DNA of 64,000 bases, taken from the IMG/VR virus record IMGVR_UViG_3300037011_001068, positions 32,001 to 96,000 of that record; one strand, given 5' to 3'. Within the stretch, counting starts at the first letter, position 1. Every line of letters begins with the position of its first letter. Below the pieces are notes generated by a model. That model was not told the origin of the DNA. It did not search any database and saw only the letters and a program-made list of their open reading frames with translations. Below, in pieces: positions 2,971 to 43,744 of the stretch. Source of the stretch: a virus. The position numbers were made by a program, and so were the translations under genes.

Positions 2971-3201
2971 ATGCCCAATCCTTCCTCAAAAAAAGTTAGG
3001 TGGCGCGTCCGGGTTCCAATTGTCGGCCTGGCAGAGGCGGACGTGTGGGCGCGGACGCGAGAAGAAGCGGAAGAGACCCTGCGGGGCACTTCCCCTCTTT
3101 CTGTCCTTCGGGGCTCTCTTTCGCTTCTTCGCTTAGGGTATAATTTCGAGGCGGCAACGGTGGAATGTGCAGGGGGATCTCCTGATGCCGATGCAGATTA
3201 A
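2971..3201 (+). CDS. hypothetical protein
   Basis: Short ORF overlapping both neighbours in an operon-like arrangement. Confidence 0.45.
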   Translation: MPNPSSKKVRWRVRVPIVGLAEADVWARTREEAEETLRGTSPLSVLRGSLSLLRLGYNFEAATVECAGGSPDADAD

Positions 3202-6019
3202 TCCCCATCAATGCACTTCGGGGGCTTTGGACACCGGATCGCCCGATAAGGAAATCGTGTGGCGAATGGATCAGGTTGGGCCGATGGTTCGCTTTCTTCA
3301 GGCGAGCCCCATTTTAATTTTCGATTTTGAGACCTCTGGGCTGGCGTATTTTCGGGATGCTGCGGCTTGTGGCATTGCCTTGGCGGGAGTGGATCAGGAG
3401 GGCCAGAGGCGCTCTTATTATGTGCCTTTCAGGCATGCGACCATTTTTCGCCAGCTCCCTATCGAGGTGGTTTCCCAGGGGGTGGCGCCGCTTCTCGCGG
3501 ATCCGAATAAGCTGAAGATCGCGCACCACATTAAATTCGATGAGCACATGGCGCGGCGGGAAGGATGGCGCGTGGAAGGGAAGCGCTATGACACCATGAT
3601 TGCCGCGCACATTGCGGATGAAAATAAGCCTATAGGATTGAAAAGTCGTGCGATGAGCGATCTGCATCGAAATGATGCAGATTATTGGGAAGGTCGTGTT
3701 GATGCGGAAGTTCGACAGCTCGCAAAAAAAGAAGGTCTTGGGATCGCTGCTTATCGTGAAAAATATGGTTATTCTCAGGTGCCACTTCCGATCGTTGGTC
3801 CATACGCATGCTTGGATGTGGAGCTCACGCATGAGCTCTACAAGCTTTACGAGAAAAATGGGCTTTCTTCTTTTTATGGGCCCATTTTCAGCACTGAATC
3901 CAAGCTCACGGGAATTCTCTGCGAAATGGAGGAGGAGGGCCTTCCCATCGATGTGCCTTACGTCCAGAAATTGAGGGAAAATCTTGTGGCGGTGCAGGCT
4001 CAATTGCTGGATTCTATTTTTCGGATAATTCCTGGGAAGCGTTTTAATTTGGCGTCCGATCAGGAGCTCCGTGATTTTTTGACTTGCGATCTGCGGCTCC
4101 CTCTCCACAAATTAACGGAGAAGGAACAGCTTGCGGTGGATGCGGAGGTCCTCGAGGAATTTTCTGCAGCTCATCCAGCAATTTCATTTATTTTGCAATG
4201 GAGAGAAGCGGAAAAAATTCGGAATACCTACACCACGTCTATCCTCTCTCGGTTGGATCGGAATAATATTCTGCACCCGGATTATCAGCAAGTCGGGACG
4301 GTGACTGGTCGGCTTGCTTGCAAATCCCCGAATTTTCAAAATCAGGTGAGGGATGATGATGATCGAGCAAAGAAGCACAGTGGGAAGGGGCTCAAGGAAG
4401 GGGGTGTGGATCCCTGGTCAGTCCGGAGGGCGTATGTTAATCGTGGGCCCGGTTGGGTGCGGTTATTTTTTGACTATTGTTTACATCCTTCGACGTTAGT
4501 GGAGACGGTTGCGGGAAAGCGGGCTTTGGGAGATCTTAAACCTAGGGATAGGGTTTTCACTTGTCGGAATATGGAGATTTCGAGTGGTGAGGTTTCTCGA
4601 GCAGTTCGGATCGGGAAACTCCCCGCTTACAAGATCAATTTCGATAATGGGGAAAGCGTAATTGCTTCTGTGGATCATGAGTGGCCTGTGGCGATTATAA
4701 AAGGTCAGCAGTTTTATCAGATTAAAAGAAAGACGGAGAATCTTCAGGAGGGCCAGTGGGTATTATCTGCGAAGTTGACTGAAAAGGGATGTATATATGA
4801 TGATAGGGTTAGCTCCATTGAATATGTAGGTTTACAAGAGATGTTTGCGATCACAGTGGAGCCTGATCATAATTATATTCTTGGGTGCGGGGTGGTTACC
4901 TGTAATTCTCAAATCGAATTGAGGGTTTTGGCTCATTATTCTCAGGATCCCACTTTGGTTGAGGCGTATCTTACCGGGGAAGATATTCATTCCAGGACTT
5001 CGATGGAGGTTTTTGGGAATAAGTCTTCTCGCCAGCTCGCGAAGATTCTTAATTTCGGCCTTTGTATTGCTGGTGGGCAGAAGGTCTTGACGCGCCAAGA
5101 TGGCCTTGTGCCGATTGAGCAAGTGCAGGATAGGCATTTTCTCTGGGATGGCGTTGATTGGGTTAGACATGCTGGCCTAGTATGCCGGGGGGAAAAGGGT
5201 GTCGTGACGTATGAGGATCTCACTGCGACGCCAGAGCATTTGGTTTTTTTGAAAGGTGGCCGATCTATTCCGATCGGATGCCTTGCATCCTCTATTAGTT
5301 CTGGGCGTCTTGCTCTTGGCGCGGTTGGAGAGGATCCCGTTAAATATTTTGCAGCTTATGGGCCACACTGGTATGCGATAGAGAATTCAGGTTGTGAGAG
5401 CTGCATGAGTTGTTCGCCATGCTTGAAGACAGCAGTGGTATATGATCTTCTGGATGCTGGCCCGCGAAATAGATTTACGGTTGAGGGGAAAATTGTGTCT
5501 AACTCCTATTGTATGTCGGCGATTGGTTACAGCCGCAACGCCAAGATCCCTCAAGAAGAGGCTGAAAAGCACATGGCTCAGTTTTTTGCTCGGTATAGCG
5601 GTATTAAACCCTTTCGCGAGAAACTATGGGCGGAAGTGCAGAGTCAGCGGGGTTATTTCCAGAATATTTTTGGGCGACCCCGAAGAGTGATCGGAATTCT
5701 TTCTCCGGGACGGCAGGCTGTATCGAGGGCTCGCCGGCAGATTATCTCGACCTTGATTCAAGGTACTGCAGCCGAGCTCACGAAAGAGAGCCTTTGCCGG
5801 ATTCATGATTTTTTGCGAGCAGAGAATATTCCCGCGAAGATTGTTGCGACCGTACATGATGAGATTCAGATTGATTGCCCGGTTGGGTCCTTGTCCAGAG
5901 TCGCGCGTGAGACGAAACGATTGATGGAGGATTTTTCACAGTTTGCTCCGATTCCTATCCTCGTGGATGGGCAATATTCCACGCAGAGCTGGAGCGATAA
6001 GCAATCGCTTCCACTGTGA
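3167..6019 (+). CDS. polA: family A DNA polymerase (3'-5' exonuclease + polymerase) containing two inteins
   Basis: FDFETSG (ExoI), HHIKFD, YACLD, TVTGRL, DY^SQIELR (motif A), AKILNFGL^SY (motif B), IQGTAA, VHDEI (motif C). Confidence 0.95.
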   Translation: MQGDLLMPMQINPHQCTSGALDTGSPDKEIVWRMDQVGPMVRFLQASPILIFDFETSGLAYFRDAAACGIALAGVDQEGQRRSYYVPFRHATIFRQLPIEVVSQGVAPLLADPNKLKIAHHIKFDEHMARREGWRVEGKRYDTMIAAHIADENKPIGLKSRAMSDLHRNDADYWEGRVDAEVRQLAKKEGLGIAAYREKYGYSQVPLPIVGPYACLDVELTHELYKLYEKNGLSSFYGPIFSTESKLTGILCEMEEEGLPIDVPYVQKLRENLVAVQAQLLDSIFRIIPGKRFNLASDQELRDFLTCDLRLPLHKLTEKEQLAVDAEVLEEFSAAHPAISFILQWREAEKIRNTYTTSILSRLDRNNILHPDYQQVGTVTGRLACKSPNFQNQVRDDDDRAKKHSGKGLKEGGVDPWSVRRAYVNRGPGWVRLFFDYCLHPSTLVETVAGKRALGDLKPRDRVFTCRNMEISSGEVSRAVRIGKLPAYKINFDNGESVIASVDHEWPVAIIKGQQFYQIKRKTENLQEGQWVLSAKLTEKGCIYDDRVSSIEYVGLQEMFAITVEPDHNYILGCGVVTCNSQIELRVLAHYSQDPTLVEAYLTGEDIHSRTSMEVFGNKSSRQLAKILNFGLCIAGGQKVLTRQDGLVPIEQVQDRHFLWDGVDWVRHAGLVCRGEKGVVTYEDLTATPEHLVFLKGGRSIPIGCLASSISSGRLALGAVGEDPVKYFAAYGPHWYAIENSGCESCMSCSPCLKTAVVYDLLDAGPRNRFTVEGKIVSNSYCMSAIGYSRNAKIPQEEAEKHMAQFFARYSGIKPFREKLWAEVQSQRGYFQNIFGRPRRVIGILSPGRQAVSRARRQIISTLIQGTAAELTKESLCRIHDFLRAENIPAKIVATVHDEIQIDCPVGSLSRVARETKRLMEDFSQFAPIPILVDGQYSTQSWSDKQSLPL
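4478..4906 (+). mobile_element. mini-intein (143 aa) in PolA motif A
   Basis: Begins CLHPSTLV, has block B ASVDHEW and ends VVTCN followed by Ser; removing it restores DYSQIELR. Confidence 0.9.
5063..5503 (+). mobile_element. mini-intein (147 aa) in PolA motif B
   Basis: Begins CIAGGQKV, has block B TATPEH and ends VYDLL..GPRNRFTVEGKIVSN followed by Ser; removing it restores KILNFGLSY. Confidence 0.9.
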
Positions 6020-6592: not shown

Positions 6593-8386
6593 ATGTATCC
6601 AGCAAATCCATGGCCACAGCAGGGCCAGCAACCGCAGCAGCCACAGCAATTTCAGCAACCGCAGCAATTTCAGCAACCGCAACAATTTCAGCAACCGCAA
6701 CAATTTCAGCAACCACAGCAGCCACAGCAGCCACAAGCAATTCAGGGTTCAGGGCAATTTGGTTCTCCGGTAGGCCCGATGGCGCCGGCAGGAATTCCCG
6801 ATTTTTTCGCTCCGAATGAGGAGCAGATTCAGGAGGAGTTTCGGCGGGCATCGGCAGAAGATCGGTTTAAAGGTCCACCCTTCGTGAAATTTTTGGGCCC
6901 GCAGGGACAGGCTAGATGGGATAAATCGGTCCCAGTGGGTCATAAAGACGATATTTTTGTGGCTTTTGCGCCTTGTTGGGGTCCTGGAAAGCCCTTGTTC
7001 AAAGTATCTCGGAGTCATTATTGGAAAAGCTTCCAGCATCCCAGAGGAAAATCTATCGGTTGCGCTGGTAAGGAGTGTTTAATTTGTAAAGCGAGGGAAT
7101 TGGCTCTCAATAGCCCGGATAATGCTGTGAAGGAGCGGGCAAAAGATATCGGTAGATCGCGTGTGCAAAATCTCTACAATGTATTTCTCCTTAAGAGTCC
7201 TCAATTGCATCCAGTAGATCCTATCACAGGGCTCATGCGACCGTTCATTCTTGGCGCTGGCAGGAATTTGCACGCTGAAATTTTTAATCTAATCGACGGT
7301 CGGGGGGGTGCAATGGCTCTCATAAATCCCAGCCATCTCCGTCCTGTGCGGATCACAAAAATTAAGAATGGTGAAGACGAGAAGGATGTTGAATATAAGT
7401 TAATTGATTACGATCCTATTGTCCTTCCACGAGAATTTTGGGGAGCACTATCGAATCTTTGGGATTTAGATGCCTTAGAGAAGCTGGTGAGTCCGGAAGA
7501 TCAAATTAAGGTGATCCAGGAGATGCAATTTCCACTTCCTCCCGGGGTTTTTCCAGGCATGTCGGCTCCTCAAGCTCCTCAAGCTCCTTCTGGATGGGCT
7601 CCTCAAGCTCCTCAAGCTCCTCAAGCTCCTTCTGGATGGGCTCCTCAAGCTCCTCAAGCTCCTTCTGGATGGGTTCCTCAAGCTCCTCAAGCTCCTCAAG
7701 CTCCTTCTGGATGGGCTCCTCAAGCTCCTCAAGCTCCTTCTGGATGGGTTCCTCAAGCTCCTCAAGCTCCTCAAGCTCCTCAAGCTCCTTCTGGATGGGC
7801 TCCTCAAGCTCCTCAAGCTCCTCAAGCTCCTTCTGGATGGGCTCCCTCCCAAACTCCTTCCCAAACTCCTTCTCAGGCTCCTTCTGGATGGTCCCCTCAA
7901 GCCCCTTCTGGATGGTCCCCTCAAGCTCCTCAAGCTCCTTCTGGATGGGCTCCTCAAGCTCCTCAAGCTCCTCAAGCTCCCTCTGGATGGGGGGCTCCTG
8001 TTCCTCCTCCAATGACTCCTCCCCCGGTGTCCTCTGGAGGAGGGGCTCCTGGGAGTTATTCTCCCCAGCCCTCGCAGGCAGGGGGGCCTGTTCCGCCGCC
8101 TGCCTACCCTATGCAGTCTCCTGGGGGTTTCGGGGATCCTTTTGCTAGTCAGCAGGCGGCTCTTCCGGGGCAAGCGATTCCGTGGCCTTTTCCTGCGGGT
8201 TTTTCTTTGCCGGACGGCAGAGAGCGTTGTTATAGTCGTTTTCATGCCGAGCATACTTTCTGCCGTCAATGCCCCGGGTGGATTCAGGCGCAATGCCAAT
8301 TGTTGGCTCGGTCTATGCTTGGTTCCGGAGGGGCGCCAAAGCCGACCTTAGAGGCGTTGCAGGCGCAGCTATCCGGCAAGGTATAA
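6593..8386 (+). CDS. gp32-like single-stranded DNA-binding protein with Q/P-rich low-complexity arms and a C-terminal Cys cluster
   Basis: SHYW...CAGKECLICK Zn motif, NLYNV and ITKIKNG...VEY form an OB-type core; directly upstream of recA. Confidence 0.65.
   Translation: MYPANPWPQQGQQPQQPQQFQQPQQFQQPQQFQQPQQFQQPQQPQQPQAIQGSGQFGSPVGPMAPAGIPDFFAPNEEQIQEEFRRASAEDRFKGPPFVKFLGPQGQARWDKSVPVGHKDDIFVAFAPCWGPGKPLFKVSRSHYWKSFQHPRGKSIGCAGKECLICKARELALNSPDNAVKERAKDIGRSRVQNLYNVFLLKSPQLHPVDPITGLMRPFILGAGRNLHAEIFNLIDGRGGAMALINPSHLRPVRITKIKNGEDEKDVEYKLIDYDPIVLPREFWGALSNLWDLDALEKLVSPEDQIKVIQEMQFPLPPGVFPGMSAPQAPQAPSGWAPQAPQAPQAPSGWAPQAPQAPSGWVPQAPQAPQAPSGWAPQAPQAPSGWVPQAPQAPQAPQAPSGWAPQAPQAPQAPSGWAPSQTPSQTPSQAPSGWSPQAPSGWSPQAPQAPSGWAPQAPQAPQAPSGWGAPVPPPMTPPPVSSGGGAPGSYSPQPSQAGGPVPPPAYPMQSPGGFGDPFASQQAALPGQAIPWPFPAGFSLPDGRERCYSRFHAEHTFCRQCPGWIQAQCQLLARSMLGSGGAPKPTLEALQAQLSGKV
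6617..6740 (+). repeat. tandem repeat encoding (Q)PQQF units
   Basis: cagcaaccgcarcaattt units repeated about 4 times, with PQQ flanks. Confidence 0.9.
7565..8000 (+). repeat. coding minisatellite built from gctcctcaa and gctccttctggatgg units (APQ/APSGW)
   Basis: Directly visible tandem repeat of about 430 bp. Confidence 0.95.
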
Positions 8387-17897: not shown

Positions 17898-17926
17898 TTG
17901 ACATAGGAGGCAATTTGCCTCATACT
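17898..17926 (+). promoter_or_regulatory. sigma70-type promoter with palindromic operator in the spacer
   Basis: TTGACA-N17-CATACT containing GAGGCAATTTGCCTC. Confidence 0.8.
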
Positions 17927-25756: not shown

Positions 25757-25785
25757 TTGATTCATGGGGCAATTTGCCTCATAAT
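25757..25785 (+). promoter_or_regulatory. sigma70-type promoter with the shared operator
   Basis: TTGATT-N17-CATAAT containing GGGGCAATTTGCCTC. Confidence 0.7.
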
Positions 25786-29442: not shown

Positions 29443-29468
29443 GAGTTTCTGGATCGGGAGCCTAGGGA

Positions 29469-29765
29469 TTAGAGATTCTTTTCCACGATACATTCAATAA
29501 TGGATACCATGGGGACTCCTTTCTCCGCGGCTGCTAAGCGCAGCCGTTTATGGAGCTCGGCAGAGATATCGAGCGTGACCCGGCGGACTTCGCGTTTGCT
29601 GGGTTTTTTTTGTGGAGAAGAATTTATGGACGAGAATTTGACCTCTTCGGGTTTTGCGAGTGCTGCGGGCTCTGCGGGCTCTGCGGTATCCAAGGGAACC
29701 TCGGTGCCTTGCACCCAGGAGTCGGCGGAGGCCTTCGGGGGGATGATGATTTTTTTCTGGGTCAT
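29469..29765 (-). CDS. ParG-like ribbon-helix-helix centromere-binding protein
   Basis: Flexible N-terminus (ADSWV) and C-terminal [23 protein letters not shown]; coupled to parA. Confidence 0.8.
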
Positions 29766-30400
29766 GACATGTACCCTTTCACGATTTCTGAGAGTACGGC
29801 GAGGATTTCTTGGGCGGCCTTGTTGTCGTCGGTCAGCGGTTGCTCCAAGACCGTGCTTCCAGAGCTCGCGGTTTCAGCAAAGCTGACCCGCTGGCAAATA
29901 GAGGCTGCAAGGACAGGGAGCTGGTATTCCGCGAGAGCGCTTGCCACGTCTCGTCCAATTGCGGTTCCGACGATTTTTCTGTTCACCACGAAGGCGCATT
30001 TCATTTTGGGGTTGTAGATGGCTGCTTCTTTGGCGAGATTCACTACGTCCTGAGCGGCCCATACGTCGTAGGGGGAGGGCTGGACGGGGATCAAGATGAG
30101 GGCGGAGGCGAGCATGGCGCTCCGCACAAGTTCTGTGGTCCGTGGGGGTCCGTCCACGATGACGTGATCATACCCTTTTGCGATGCCGTCGAGGTCTCGG
30201 TGGAGGACCGGTCGATCCATCGCGACGACCGAGAAGAGGGGCGCGATTTGGCGGGTGGCGAGCCAATCCCGGGCGCTCCCTTGGGGGTCCGCGTCCACGA
30301 GGAGGACTTTGTGGTGCCGGAGCGCGAGCCCGGTTGCGAGGTGGAGAGCGACGGTGGTTTTTCCGACGCCTCCCTTTTGGTTCAAAATAGCGATGTGCAT
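29762..30400 (-). CDS. parA: ParA/ParF type Ib partition ATPase
   Basis: [32 protein letters not shown]; AGGAG RBS before the ATG at 30400. Confidence 0.93.
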
Positions 30401-30424
30401 GATTACTCCTTTCAGTGGTACAGT

Positions 30425-30455
30425 AAATCCAGAAATCCAGTATTCTGGATTTCCG
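30425..30455. promoter_or_regulatory. repeat/palindrome upstream of parA (candidate operator or centromere)
   Basis: AAATCCAGAAATCCAGTATTCTGGATTT: direct plus inverted copies of AAATCCAG. Confidence 0.6.
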
Positions 30456-30502
30456 GGTGCTAGGTGTATCGGAGCGCGTTCTTGGAAGCAAGGAAATAAT
30501 GC

Positions 30503-30531
30503 TTGACATAGGAGGCAATTTGCCTCATAGT
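30503..30531 (+). promoter_or_regulatory. sigma70-type promoter with the shared operator
   Basis: TTGACA-N17-CATAGT; 28 bp identical to 17897-17924. Confidence 0.8.
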
Positions 30532-31475: not shown

Positions 31476-32165
31476 ATGCGGATTGATCTTCACATCCACA
31501 CCCAGGGAAGCGATGGCATCGGGAGGCCTTCGGAGATTGCCGAGGCGGCGGTCCGGGCTGGGCTCGAGGGGATTGCCATCACGGACCACCATCGCACACG
31601 GACTAAGGCGGGCGAGCAAGTGGCGGAGGCGTGCCGGGCGCGAGGCCTTCTCGTGGTCCGCGGGGCGGAGTATTCGGCAGCCGAGGGGCATGTTTTGGTT
31701 TTCGGGGTGGCAATGGAGGACCTCGCTTTTGGGTTCTATGCCCCCATGCAGACCGTGATTCAGCGGGCATGGGAAGCCGGTGGGGTGGCTATCCCGGCTC
31801 ACCCCTACCACGGATACCGTTCTTGCCTTGGGAGTGGTCTAGCGGCCCTCTCTGGCCTTGTGGCGGTGGAGACCTTCAACGGCCAGGTGGAGACTCGTTC
31901 CCCGGAGGAAAATTGGATGGCTCGGGTGGCGGCGCAGGCGATGGGCCTTCCAGGGGTGGGCGGGAGCGACGCTCATTTTCCTCTGGCTGTGGGGCGATGC
32001 TTTACCCACTTCCAGGGGCAATTTCTGGACGCTCGGCAGGTAGTGGCGGCACTTCGGGGAGGGCAAGGATTCTTGGCTTGCGCCAGAGTGCTGGACAAGT
32101 CCGCAATTTTGAAGCAAAACAAAAGGTATGGACGTGCAATTCTCAGTAAAAAGAAAGCCAGTTGA
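31476..32165 (+). CDS. PHP-domain metal-dependent phosphoesterase
   Basis: DLHIHT, SDG, AITDH, GAE, GH, AHP, GGSDAH. Confidence 0.9.
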   Translation: MRIDLHIHTQGSDGIGRPSEIAEAAVRAGLEGIAITDHHRTRTKAGEQVAEACRARGLLVVRGAEYSAAEGHVLVFGVAMEDLAFGFYAPMQTVIQRAWEAGGVAIPAHPYHGYRSCLGSGLAALSGLVAVETFNGQVETRSPEENWMARVAAQAMGLPGVGGSDAHFPLAVGRCFTHFQGQFLDARQVVAALRGGQGFLACARVLDKSAILKQNKRYGRAILSKKKAS

Positions 32166-34689
32166 GCGAAGGCCTATTAAGAGGCAGCCTATCCTCGCTC
32201 CAGAGAATTCAGAAAATTCAAAAATAGACCCGCTGGGTAGCCAAAAGCTTCTCCGCGCTTCGTGCGCTTTTTTCGCGCAGGATGTCTTGGGGGGTCCAGC
32301 AATTGCCCCCTACCATGGGCGGTTTCTTGTGAGTGAGCATCACGAGGAATGGGATGACTTGATAGTCCGGTATCTTCGTCTGGTGATTCTCGCTCCTCGG
32401 GACCATGGAAAATGTGGGCGAGGGAATGAGCTTCTGCTCGCGGCGGATGGATCTCGTGTGCGGCTGGATCAGTGGCAGGGGGGTTATCTCTGGGTGTATA
32501 GGGAGCAGGATCAATCTTTCGTTCCGGTGTACGCTCCGAAATCTCGGAGAAATGGAGTGCATCCTGTATACGCCGTGAGAACACGCACGGGGCGAGAGCT
32601 CGTTGTTACGGGCAATCATCGTTTTCTTTTAGAAGACGGTTGGAAGGAGACAGCAGAGCTCCTGGTCGGGGATCGGATTGCATTGGCGCAGAGGATCCCT
32701 TCCCCCAAAGGGCTTCCTTGTTCTAATGCTTGGATTCTTGGGTTGCTGTTAGGAGACAAGGGGATTTTTGGGAAAGAGGTTGCAAGTAAACGTGTTCCAG
32801 CAATTATTTTTCAGGCGCGAAAAACGGATATAGCAGATTTTTTGGGTGGGTATTTTGATTCGAGTGGGGTGCTGAATTTTTATGGCGGAGGGTCGCTTGA
32901 ATTCTGTTCGAGATCAGAAGGATTGCTTCAAGATGTGCAGCATTTGCTTGGTCGTTTTGGCATCATCGCGTCTTTAAGCTCCAAGGTTGAAACGCATATC
33001 GGAGAGTCATACTACTCTTTTCGATTGGTCGTTTGTGGTACTGATGTTTTCCGTTTTGCAGAGGCAATTTCTTTGCAGAGCAGCAAGCGGATGGTACTCA
33101 AAAAGCTTGTGGCGGAGCAAAAGAAACGAGGCATTTCTACTGAGTCTTCCGCTTCTCAATGGAAAGGGGATCAACCTATTTTTTGGGATGAGGTCATGGC
33201 GGTTGAGGCGCAAGCGCCCTGCATGACTTGGGCTCTTCAGGTTCCTGATACCCAGACATACCTAGCGAATGACATCGTAAATCATAATACTTATTTTTTT
33301 GATTTCGCTTACGTTATTTGGAAAGCGTGGAGCAATCCAGGAGGAACAGGGTTCATTTTCTCGGCCACAAAACCGCAAGCAGAGAGAATTTTAGAGGACA
33401 TAAAGAATGAAATTGAGAATAACCCCAAGCTTGCACATCTAGTTCCGAATGAGCAGAAAGGGCGGAAGTGGAGCTCTGGGTACATTCGGCTCTCGAATGG
33501 GCATCGTATTTATGCTAGAGGCTATGGGTCGCGTGTTAGAGGGGCGCACCCTGATTATATAATCGTGGATGATGGGATCAATGATGAATCACTTTACTCA
33601 GAAATGGTCAGAAAAAAGCAATCGGACTATTTCTTTACCGCTATCTCTAACATGATTATCCCCGGTGGACAAATTTTAGTGGTGGGAACGCCTTTTCATT
33701 CAAGCGATCTGTATGGGGAGCTCCAGAGTAACCCGGAGTATGAGTTTCGGAAGTACCCTGCCATCAAATCTGATGGTACACCGCTTTGGCCTGATCGATA
33801 TTCTATTGGGCGACTAGAGGCCAAGAAGAGAGAAATTGGTACAATTCGGTTTACGCGAGAATTCATGGTGGACCCGGTGTCGGACGATATGAGTCTTTTT
33901 CCTATCGGGCTCTTCCGCGGGCAGCAGGTGGAGCTCTTCCATGTACGGCTAGGGATGCCTCTGGATTTCTGGAAGCGGGCTGGTGTGATCCCTTACATGG
34001 CGGCGGATTTCGCGATTTCCTCGAACGTCAAAGCAGACTACTTTGTGATTTTCGTGTTGGGGCTCGACAAGTTTGGCAATCGCTGGATCATCGATATTGC
34101 GCGGCATCATGGGATGTCCTATCAAGATCAGCTCTCCGAGATCAATCGGCTGGGGCGAAAATACGAGCCAGCTCTTATTTTCCTCGAGTCTAATCAAATG
34201 CAGCGAATCTTTGGGGATGAGCTCATTCGGACTACTGATCTTCCGATTCGGAAATTCGAGACCACCGCGGCGAAGAACGCTCTCGATAAGGGGGTGCCTT
34301 CTCTTAGGGTACTCTTGGAGAATGGCAAGGTGCGTATCCCTCGGGGGGACAAGCAATCGGTGGAGCTGACCGATCAGTGGATTGGGGAGATGCACGCCAT
34401 CACTTTTTCTGAGGGCAAGGTGCATAGTACGGCTCCACACGATGATACCGTGATGGCTTTTTGGATTTGTGATCAAGCCATTAGGCACGGAGGGTTTCAG
34501 TTTACGTTTGGCGAGGAGTACGGGGAGCCTACGCAGGAGGGATTTCAGGAGCTCATGCAGGAGCTCACGGGGGAGGACTCTTCCCAGAAAAAGGATGTAG
34601 GAACCCCGGCAGCCGTTTCGACGGTCTCTTTGGTTGACGAGGCGGTGGATATCGAGGCTAGAGGCTATCCAGAATTGGGGTATGTGTAG
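32128..34689 (+). CDS. terL: terminase large subunit with intein
   Basis: APRDHGK^T Walker A, RGAHPDYIIVDD, VGTPFH, AADFAIS, HDDTVMA. Confidence 0.93.
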   Translation: MDVQFSVKRKPVERRPIKRQPILAPENSENSKIDPLGSQKLLRASCAFFAQDVLGGPAIAPYHGRFLVSEHHEEWDDLIVRYLRLVILAPRDHGKCGRGNELLLAADGSRVRLDQWQGGYLWVYREQDQSFVPVYAPKSRRNGVHPVYAVRTRTGRELVVTGNHRFLLEDGWKETAELLVGDRIALAQRIPSPKGLPCSNAWILGLLLGDKGIFGKEVASKRVPAIIFQARKTDIADFLGGYFDSSGVLNFYGGGSLEFCSRSEGLLQDVQHLLGRFGIIASLSSKVETHIGESYYSFRLVVCGTDVFRFAEAISLQSSKRMVLKKLVAEQKKRGISTESSASQWKGDQPIFWDEVMAVEAQAPCMTWALQVPDTQTYLANDIVNHNTYFFDFAYVIWKAWSNPGGTGFIFSATKPQAERILEDIKNEIENNPKLAHLVPNEQKGRKWSSGYIRLSNGHRIYARGYGSRVRGAHPDYIIVDDGINDESLYSEMVRKKQSDYFFTAISNMIIPGGQILVVGTPFHSSDLYGELQSNPEYEFRKYPAIKSDGTPLWPDRYSIGRLEAKKREIGTIRFTREFMVDPVSDDMSLFPIGLFRGQQVELFHVRLGMPLDFWKRAGVIPYMAADFAISSNVKADYFVIFVLGLDKFGNRWIIDIARHHGMSYQDQLSEINRLGRKYEPALIFLESNQMQRIFGDELIRTTDLPIRKFETTAAKNALDKGVPSLRVLLENGKVRIPRGDKQSVELTDQWIGEMHAITFSEGKVHSTAPHDDTVMAFWICDQAIRHGGFQFTFGEEYGEPTQEGFQELMQELTGEDSSQKKDVGTPAAVSTVSLVDEAVDIEARGYPELGYV
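32413..33288 (+). mobile_element. intein (292 aa) with a degenerate LAGLIDADG homing endonuclease, in the TerL Walker A motif
   Basis: Begins CGRGNELL, has TGNH, LGLLLGD and FLGGYFDSSG, and ends IVNHN followed by Thr. Confidence 0.9.
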
Positions 34690-41963: not shown

Positions 41964-43744
41964 TAAGCATGAGCTTTTTCGAGGACTTCACGGGGTTCGG
42001 GCTGACCACGCTCGGGGCCCTGGGTGGCATGGTGCAGGAGTGGGCGCAAGGCGCGTTATTAAAAGGTCCGGAAGGATCGGATGAAGAAGAAAAGCGCAGC
42101 TCGCAAGGCTCGGATACTGCCCCCGGCGGTAAGCGAGCGGACAGCGCGGAGTCAAATCCTGTTCCAGAGGAGAAGGCCTCAAGCGACCCAAAGGCGCTTT
42201 TTTGGGATCCCTTCGCGATTATTGAGCAGTTGGGCTACAAGGACAGGCCTTCGCAAATCAGCTATGGAACGCTGAAAGCGATGGCCTGGAAAACCCCTAT
42301 CGCGCACGCGGTCATCCAGACACGGGTGAATCAAATTTCTGGATTTAGTCATGTGCAACATGATCGGTATCAGATGGGTTTTCGGATTAAAACCCGTGAG
42401 ACTGAGAAAGAGCCCACGAAGGCGGAGCGAAAATGGATCCAGCAAATGGAATCTGTGATATTGCGGACAGGTGTCACGGATCATCCGAGGGGGCGAGACG
42501 GCTTCAAAGAGTTTCTCAAAAAAGTTACCTGGGATTCCCTTGTGTACGATCAAATGTGCTTTGAAATCGTGCAGAATCGCAAAGGGCAGCCGGCGGAGTG
42601 GTATGCGGTGGACGGTGCCACCATTCGGCGGGCCGACACGGCGAGTACCTTCACGGACGAGGATCATACGAAGGCTATCCGGTATGTGCAGATCTACGAC
42701 GGACTTGTAATCGCGGAGTACACTCAGGATGAACTATGTTTCGCAATTCGGAATCCCAGGACGGATATTCGGCTTTTTGGGTATGGCATTTCTGAGCTTG
42801 AAATGCTTGTGCCGGCGGTAACCTGTATCCTCTATGCCTGGGAGTACAATCAGCGTTTTTTCAGCCAGGGGTCAGCGGCGAAGGGAATCATTAACTTCAA
42901 GGGTGCGGTTCCAGAAAAGCAACTGCAGTCTTTTCGCCGCCACTGGTATCAAATGATTTCAGGCGTTGAAAATGCATGGAGAACGCCTGTCACAAATGCC
43001 GAGGATCTCCAGTACATTAATCTCCAGCAATCCAGCCGGGACATGGAGTACAATTCTTGGATGGATTTTTTGATCAAGGTGGTTTGCGCGATGTATGCCA
43101 TGGATCCGGCAGAGCTCAATTTCAAGTACGGGAACGTTGGGCAGCGTGGAGGGCTTCAGGAGAGCTCCAATCGGGAGAAAATTACGGAGAGCAAAGAGCG
43201 GGGTCTCAGGCCGCTTCTCCGGTTCATCGCGGATGCCATCAATTTGCACCTTATCTGGCCCATCAACGAAAATTTTGAATTTGATTTTGTGGGCCTGGAC
43301 GCGCAAACCAAGGATGAAATGGCCGAGCTTTCTGCAAAGCAGGTGCGCGTATATAAAACTGTGGATGAGATTCGCGCGCAGGACGATCTTCCTCCACTTC
43401 CGGATGGCCTCGGAGAAGTGCTGCTCGACCCCACGTGGTATCAGTACGCTCAGCAAAAGCAGGCGCAGGCGCAGCAAGCAGAGAACCCCCAGGGACAAAT
43501 GGGGGAAGGTGAGCCAGAGGGCGGAGCTCCTGGCGGGGAGCAGGGCGGTGAAGAGCAGGGAGGGGGAATGGACTTCAAAAAGCTCCTCCAGCAGTACGGG
43601 CAAGGCGGGGGAGAGAAGCCGGAGGGCGGGAGCAAGAATGCGGTAGAGCCTGCGAAGCCTGCGGTTCCGGCTAAGGCAGCAGCTCCTCAAGTAGCGAAGA
43701 GCTTCGGGCAAGGCAAGAAAATTTTTATCGATCTAACCCTGTGA
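41960..43744 (+). CDS. portal protein
   Basis: DSLVYDQMCFEIV, AVDGATI, GYGISELE, YNQRFFSQG, DMEYNSW, SKERGLRPLL, TVDEIRA. Confidence 0.92.
   Translation: MISMSFFEDFTGFGLTTLGALGGMVQEWAQGALLKGPEGSDEEEKRSSQGSDTAPGGKRADSAESNPVPEEKASSDPKALFWDPFAIIEQLGYKDRPSQISYGTLKAMAWKTPIAHAVIQTRVNQISGFSHVQHDRYQMGFRIKTRETEKEPTKAERKWIQQMESVILRTGVTDHPRGRDGFKEFLKKVTWDSLVYDQMCFEIVQNRKGQPAEWYAVDGATIRRADTASTFTDEDHTKAIRYVQIYDGLVIAEYTQDELCFAIRNPRTDIRLFGYGISELEMLVPAVTCILYAWEYNQRFFSQGSAAKGIINFKGAVPEKQLQSFRRHWYQMISGVENAWRTPVTNAEDLQYINLQQSSRDMEYNSWMDFLIKVVCAMYAMDPAELNFKYGNVGQRGGLQESSNREKITESKERGLRPLLRFIADAINLHLIWPINENFEFDFVGLDAQTKDEMAELSAKQVRVYKTVDEIRAQDDLPPLPDGLGEVLLDPTWYQYAQQKQAQAQQAENPQGQMGEGEPEGGAPGGEQGGEEQGGGMDFKKLLQQYGQGGGEKPEGGSKNAVEPAKPAVPAKAAAPQVAKSFGQGKKIFIDLTL

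Follow-up and report, generated by a model that had tools for sequence, protein, structure and literature searches.

A 64,000-nucleotide stretch of viral DNA (the window; positions 32,001 to 96,000 of IMG/VR record IMGVR_UViG_3300037011_001068) carries on its minus strand a short parA gene and, directly downstream, a gene for a small protein with a ribbon-helix-helix (RHH) domain, both preceded by an array of short repeats (Table 1). An earlier note on this DNA had read the two genes as a type Ib ParA/ParG-like pair, and comparison with known families bears this out: judged by their sequences, parA and the RHH gene add an unremarkable new case to the type Ib ParA/ParG systems. The same note had called them the only credible minus-strand genes; this was checked in part, and nearly all long open reading frames do lie on the plus strand.

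Table 1. The partition locus and related double boxes (window coordinates unless marked as genome)
Feature	Position	Strand	Basis or remark
parA, 212-residue type Ib partition ATPase	30400..29762	-	NCBIfam, PDB and homologue comparisons
ParG-like centromere-binding protein candidate, 98 residues	29765..29469	-	Profile, AlphaFold model, Foldseek
Candidate operator and centromere, six tetramer boxes	30412..30456		Layout as TP228 O_F/parH
Operator copy of dispersed motif, TCCAGAAATC	30428..30437	+	10/10 match to TCCAGMAAWY
Single box past RHH stop, minus-strand ATCCAGAAACT (plus-strand TTTCTGGAT)	29446..29454	-	9/10 match to TCCAGMAAWY; repeat I7
Dispersed double box TCCAGAAATCCAG	33961..33973	-	Inside terminase gene
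Dispersed double box TCCAGAAATCCAG, outside window	genome 21123 and 6641		
Variant double box TCCAGCAATCCAG	43023..43035	+	

Over its whole length, ParA scores 259.8 bits against NCBIfam NF041546 (ParA_partition; cut-off 180), and it matches PHROG 164 ('ParA-like partition protein') at 4e-47. Its closest solved relative is ParF of plasmid TP228 (PDB 4dzz, 1.6e-23), and thousands of ParAs from plasmids and metagenomes (209-211 residues) share 57-67% identity with it. The protein is of the short form, without the N-terminal DNA-binding domain of type Ia, the Pfam ATPase domains spanning residues 3-184. It contains the deviant Walker A motif KGGxGK[ST] with its signature lysine, the A' motif and a Walker B motif (VIVDGPP), and all invariant columns of the family (alignment A3) are retained, both Walker A lysines among them; K9, G10-G13, K14, T15, D36, D38 and D83 lie in such columns. 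By likeness to type Ib systems, ParA would be expected to bind the nucleoid in an ATP-dependent manner and to hydrolyse ATP when stimulated by its partner. A GGAG ribosome-binding site lies 6 nucleotides upstream of the start; a consensus scan passed no sigma-70-like promoter for the gene. Neither a DNA search of phages with the 3.8-kb region nor a related-locus search of viral contigs with ParA alone gave a match. Base composition offers some indication of the history of the gene. The GC content at third codon positions (GC3, 71%) is higher than in all 57 phage genes compared and therefore hints at a foreign origin of parA. Its coding-strand GC skew (-0.147), in turn, falls below that of all 80 homologues (mean +0.07) and equals, with opposite sign, the strong top-strand G excess of the phage; since the skew has ameliorated to this excess, it suggests that parA has long resided in the phage in inverted orientation.

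The start of the RHH gene overlaps the parA stop as ATGA. Its product consists of a disordered tail (residues 1-58) followed by the RHH domain (residues 59-98): in the AlphaFold model, the tail has a low predicted local distance difference test score (pLDDT) and no secondary structure, and the domain forms an extended strand and two helices (69-82 and 86-97) at a pLDDT of about 90. The best Foldseek match of the model is ParG (root-mean-square deviation 1.0 A over 37 columns, E 0.14), followed by CopG, Arc and omega. No Foldseek match of this 40-residue domain reaches E 0.001, and the E value for ParG is only 0.14 because the domain is short. A family profile of the RHH relatives matches ParG (PDB 1P94) at E 6.7e-5, before omega, the third-best PDB match, and ParD; a word-indexed search with the single protein found no relative. 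The Pfam ParG family is matched by 5 of 14 members of the RHH family (E <= 0.01). The family shares the tail motif KK[VI]..P.K...D.WV, and K4 of the tail is invariant in an eight-member alignment (A2). The gene order has close parallels as well. In the Xanthomonas and Aeromonas plasmids, which carry the closest annotated plasmid ParAs, the next gene encodes a ParG or hypothetical protein of 77-78 residues and has the same 4-nucleotide overlap, most of 75 viral loci show parA followed by a partner gene, and in phiHAP-1 a small gene overlaps the end of parA. The phage protein aligns to those plasmid partner proteins at E 2e-6 (Xanthomonas ParG) and 2e-5. A predicted complex of a ParA dimer with ATP and RHH residues 1-50 scored 0.11 against a mark of 0.32, which speaks neither for nor against binding. 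Taken as a whole, sequence profile and model make the RHH protein a candidate ParG-like centromere-binding protein.

What might this protein bind? The repeats reported upstream of parA, AAATCCAG-AAATCCAG-TATT-CTGGATTT, are indeed present (30425-30452) and form two direct repeats followed by an inverted one, but the array is longer than described. It comprises six boxes in an 8-bp phase (TCAG at 30412, ACAG at 30420, CCAG at 30429, CCAG at 30437, CTGG at 30445 and CCGG at 30453), separated by AT-rich spacers of 4 bp (GGTA-like, TAAA, AAAT, TATT and ATTT), with the GGAG ribosome-binding site of parA as its end. A palindrome with 12-nucleotide arms (30429-30456) takes in the array core, and nowhere else in the 105,756-bp genome do at least three copies of ATCCAG occur within 40 bp. 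The single site that had been noted past the second gene was also found, in the 26 nucleotides that separate the RHH stop from that of a convergent plus-strand gene. In the ParG system, boxes and AT-rich spacers of 4 bp each alternate, the boxes stand in both direct and inverted orientation and bind one dimer each, and the array is operator and centromere at once (PMC3130281). The array in the phage has this very layout and is thus a candidate operator and centromere, with binding by the RHH protein predicted from the resemblance.

An independent line of support for this pairing comes from other viruses. We fetched 80 viral contigs with a homologous ParA and counted CAGAAA in the 120 bp upstream of parA, drawing the expectation from the rest of the same loci and defining the RHH subtype by the strand signature [KR]RxTx[DE]x. 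Apart from this phage, 11 viral loci share the strand signature and carry the box 0.73 times per locus, where 0.08 would be expected; for 52 loci with a different RHH type, the count is 0.12 (0.11 expected). The test was framed after some of the sequences had been inspected by eye, so that its P value is to be taken loosely, and the 52-locus control group is the stronger argument. These independent viral contigs support the notion that the CAGAAA box type belongs to this RHH subtype. A single box common to the wider ParA family was considered and rejected: the regions upstream of parA in the Aeromonas and Xanthomonas plasmids use other repeats, of the TTACA type.

Two further elements adjoin or overlap the cassette. 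The near-palindrome GGCAATTTGCC occurs exactly three times (window 30503-30531, 25757-25785 and 17909-17919), and its copies at 30514 and 25768 sit between the -35 and -10 hexamers of sigma-70-like plus-strand promoters. The promoter at 30514 diverges from parA. GGCAATTTGCC is a candidate operator at which a second regulator would act. On the plus strand, antisense within the RHH coding region, lies a hairpin that resembles a terminator and has a T-run (window 29577-29613). It might end transcription running in from the convergent upstream operon; hits of this sort come up at close to the chance rate.

The word from which the array is built is not confined to it. TCCAGMAATT, which the earlier note had reported as dispersed, has 64 copies in the genome; 42 of these fall in the window, where 0.69 would be expected. 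Counts of one-mismatch variants define the full motif as R-TCCAG-M-A-A-W-Y, and TCCAGMAAWY is present in 109 genomic copies (71 on the plus and 38 on the minus strand), whereas Markov models predict 6.3 (third order) or 3.9 (second order). Copies occur in all three reading frames and therefore represent a signal at the level of DNA rather than a peptide repeat. They are evenly distributed (2-9 per 5 kb), with 87% located inside genes and a weak intergenic enrichment (12.8% vs 8.0%, P 0.07). The share on the coding (plus) strand, 65%, is not the predominant co-orientation that characterizes stoperators. The orientation of the strict word TCCAGMAATT flips in a block at genome 5.5-21.4 kb, where the minus strand has 8 of 10 copies, compared with 12 of 54 in the rest of the genome; this block holds tail and baseplate genes, still on the plus strand. 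A cluster of TTCTGGAT (window 7588-7983) was examined as a possible box array and turned out to be a coding repeat, APQAPQAPSGW. Two convergent motif pairs (window 3963/4002 and 21657/21697) have an equal start-to-start spacing of 39-40 bp, and the GC skew of the genome is lowest at 14-20 kb and 86-105 kb.

Operator and dispersed motif are connected by sequence, as had been claimed: operator box plus spacer (CCAGAAAT) constitute the core of TCCAGMAAWY, the first box being a perfect copy and the others matching at 8-9 of 10 positions. The 13-mer double box of the operator, TCCAGAAATCCAG, has three further copies where about 0.003 would be expected. To place this in context, the same pipeline was run on 75 ParA-bearing viral loci. 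Only in this phage is the repeated word upstream of parA strongly enriched in the flanks (21 vs 4.0, P 2e-9); the next-best locus reaches 3e-5, with an AT-rich word. Since the operator word is dispersed in one of 75 loci, the link between the sequences is real and unusual. Because box and spacer equal the motif core, some affinity of the RHH protein for the roughly 109 dispersed sites can be expected.

Is the motif then a property of the cassette? Terminase-based searches retrieved relatives at 60-65% identity (L004/L009, L010, L011, L012 and L093) along with the more distant L094 and L095, in the form of incomplete genomes, namely fragments of 3-21 kb around the terminase. Several of these are enriched for words of the TCCAGA type: TCCAGAAAWY occurs 4 times in 3.2 kb of L012 (expected about 0), TTCCAGAA 5 times in L093 (expected 0.1) and 9 times in L011 (expected 0.7), and TCCAGACT 28 times in L004 (expected 0.6), the last enrichment owing partly to a repeated KSLE peptide. 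L010 is weakly enriched, and L094, L095 and L005 show no such enrichment. Neither parA nor a relative of the RHH gene was present in the terminase fragments of L004, L010, L011, L012 and L093-L095. For L010 and L011 this takes in the 10 kb before the terminase, for L012 and L093 the surroundings of PHP and terminase; a weak RHH-like tblastn match in L004 was discarded, as it lies antisense inside a 1407-residue gene. Within these incomplete fragments, and as far as the data go, the motif family therefore appears to be a trait of the clade and the cassette an accessory. Given its enrichment in cassette-free fragments, the motif may predate the cassette or be independent of it. No relative of the phage was found among isolate genomes. 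Terminase relatives L093 and L094 lie on contigs binned into Gemmatimonadaceae/Gemmatimonadetes metagenome-assembled genomes, and one into a Lentisphaeria genome of this kind, which gives a slight indication of the hosts that the clade may infect.

The genome around the cassette is that of a phage. On its single 105,756-bp contig, parA and the RHH gene occur together with genes for terminase, baseplate and tail. Its own enzymes include PolA, which contains an intein, together with a DnaB-like helicase, RecA, an SbcCD-like pair, RuvC and an amidase. Positions 1-126 are identical to 105,629-105,754, with one mismatch in the last two bases; a terminal repeat of this kind points to a molecule that is either circular or terminally redundant, although the record is listed as linear in the source database. 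Its estimated completeness is 98%. No tyrosine (PF00589) or serine (PF00239) recombinase was detected at E <= 1, transposases and protelomerases not having been searched for, and the 98%-complete record yielded no XRE-type helix-turn-helix (HTH) domain (PF01381) and no ParB (PF02195). An intact, well-formed partition cassette in an integrase-less phage makes plasmid-like carriage the most economical reading, and the phage is probably a phage-plasmid. We thus consider it likely that a working type Ib cassette of the ParF/ParG kind serves the plasmid-like carriage of a phage of roughly 105.6 kb that assembles as a circle and lacks an integrase.

How might the cassette operate? By analogy to TP228 and pSM19035, we envision that RHH dimers would load cooperatively onto the phased CAG-type tetramer boxes upstream of parA, and that this loading would repress the parA-RHH operon and at the same time build the partition complex. 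The disordered, lysine-bearing tail might then stimulate the ATPase activity of ParA on the nucleoid, so that copies of the phage DNA would reach the daughter cells in a plasmid-like state, be it lysogenic or as a carrier. TP228 itself shares with the phage a small ParA (about 206-212 residues), a partner gene directly downstream, a disordered tail joined to a C-terminal RHH domain, and, in parH/O_F, tetramer boxes with 4-bp AT-rich spacers, an 8-bp phase and mixed orientation. In the folded domain the phage RHH protein is about 26-27% identical to TP228 ParG, and an invariant lysine marks its tail where ParG has a demonstrated arginine finger. The boxes differ as well, being ACTC in TP228 and CCAG/CTGG here, and, unlike TP228, the cassette is phage-borne and its box plus spacer is dispersed about 109 times in the replicon. 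In pSM19035, the single RHH protein omega acts as centromere binder and as regulator at several promoters, through short repeats arranged as two direct and one inverted. The RHH partner and the repeat pattern of this delta/omega system thus resemble those of the phage; its omega-epsilon-zeta context is absent here, and its heptads form arrays at three promoters rather than about 109 isolated, mostly intragenic sites. Among phages, the Hapunavirus members phiHAP-1, VP882 and vB_VpaM_MAR persist as episomes and carry ParAs 43-47% identical to the one described here. Together with N15, they are linear plasmids of about 40 kb with a protelomerase, a gene that was not searched for in the present genome.

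Several observations weigh against plasmid-like carriage by a ParG-type cassette. The RHH protein has just 15 relatives at E <= 0.001 among 1.8 billion representatives, and in a Pfam scan it matched no family at gathering score, ParG (PF09274) included, RHH_10 and HicB being matched below the cut-off. The array has three perfect and three degenerate boxes as compared with 20 in TP228, and the cassette is missing from the fragments of the relatives. The proposal that the phage is a plasmid prophage draws on the circular assembly and on the want of a detected integrase; on the other side, no plasmid-type replication initiator was recognized among about 35 proteins scanned, and no repressor was recognized either. 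A phage-owned set of replication and recombination genes is also typical of virulent phages, and carriage as such is a prediction from the genome sequence.

A separate question is which factor reads the dispersed motif. We give a nearly even chance to the view that the motif belongs to another reader, either conserved in the clade or supplied by the host, and that it represents a stoperator-like element, a polar signal akin to Chi or to the FtsK-orienting polar sequences (KOPS), or a packaging or recombination signal. The par operator would then overlap the motif by chance of the family box CAGAAAT, or through later tuning. This is consistent with the presence of the motif family in cassette-free fragments and with the change of its flanks between relatives; the stoperator consensus of Cluster A mycobacteriophages likewise changes between relatives (PMC6550527). 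It also accords with the orientation bias and its flip in the tail-gene block, and with the hint from GC3 that parA is foreign. However, we estimate at about 5e-4 the chance that an imported box of 7-8 nucleotides would coincide with the top motif of the phage, the 65% co-orientation and mostly intragenic position of the sites are unlike stoperators, and no candidate binder for the motif has been identified.

Alternatively, the RHH protein may bind not just its operator but also the dispersed RTCCAGMAAWY sites, roughly 109 in number, and turn them into a distributed centromere, as the earlier note had suggested for TCCAGMAATT, or act as a global regulator or silencer comparable to omega or KorB. 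Both the recurrence of the exact double box and the perfect match of the first operator box argue for this possibility, as does a CCAG exactly 8 bp downstream of the motif at 5 of the 109 sites (0.56 expected). Since CAGAAA(T) is typical of this RHH subtype elsewhere, the operator was not simply assembled from a foreign motif. The dispersal is unique among the 75 ParA-bearing viral loci, the sites are evenly spread, and no other repressor was detected. Against it stands the architecture of the dispersed sites, such as TCCAGAAATT and TCCAGCAATT, which are single boxes without phased neighbours, the motif logo showing no conserved neighbour box beside them. The ten specified bases exceed the 4-bp box and AT flank read by one ParG dimer (PMC3130281), the great majority of sites lie inside genes, the 28 copies of the TCCAGCAATT variant have no counterpart in the operator, and TCCAGA-type motifs with different flanks are enriched where the closest relatives lack the cassette in their fragments. 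Recognition of the dispersed 10-mer as a distributed centromere draws its support from the sequence identity of box and spacer, and we regard it as unlikely, a clade-wide reader of another kind that owns the motif being at least as likely.

Scattered sites have precedents in other phages. The N15 genome reportedly contains four scattered centromere sites; these are palindromic sopC sites served by the type Ia SopAB system, as opposed to about a hundred sites and a type Ib cassette here. Cluster A mycobacteriophages carry many asymmetric repressor sites throughout their genomes, with a drifting consensus, and their int or parABS module can be swapped (PMC6550527). Their stoperators, however, amount to 20-30, follow the direction of transcription and are recognized by an HTH repressor, and their par module is of the ParA/ParB type rather than ParA with a ParG-like RHH protein.

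That the cassette instead acts in lytic growth, by positioning replicating DNA or interfering with host or plasmid partition, or is a decaying passenger, seems to us quite improbable: the large, almost unidirectional and self-sufficient gene set for replication and recombination, the failure to find a repressor or integrase and the location of the cassette in a variable region would fit such a role, but both genes are intact and translationally coupled with their invariant residues kept, the operator is well formed, homologous ParAs occur in known plasmid prophages, and the ameliorated skew suggests long retention.

The phage comes from an uncultivated sediment lineage and is large, with a replisome of its own; through its cassette it joins the phages for which persistence as a plasmid is probable, which bears on how such phages are inherited and on their classification as temperate or virulent. 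Should the RHH protein read the roughly 109 sites, a protein of 98 residues would give rise to a genome-wide centromere or silencer. The whole 106-kb genome might then be coated as a distributed centromere or silenced, with one protein as both partition adaptor and master repressor, a scenario that we consider doubtful; we know of no description of such a combination, either in type Ib systems or in phages. If the RHH protein does not read the sites, the motif still marks a clade-wide DNA signal with another reader.

Some features elsewhere in the genome deserve mention. An AT-rich non-coding region of about 650 bp (genome 26,740-27,390; L007:8740-9390), just before the helicase and replication genes, is a candidate for an origin, for an early promoter region or for an end of the genome. 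It contains a palindrome flanked by TTAATTAA, GC-rich repeats of GCGCGC, and GGGTAAAATTTCTCGA twice. A LAGLIDADG intein interrupts the large terminase (window 32128-34689), and PolA (window 3167-6019) holds an insert of the intein or Hint type. The five close relatives all have uninterrupted terminase exteins and therefore are without the terminase intein. Finally, window 6593-8386 encodes a 597-residue protein that has no Pfam match, begins with a Q/P-rich N-terminus and contains about 14 tandem repeats of the APQAPQAPSGW type.

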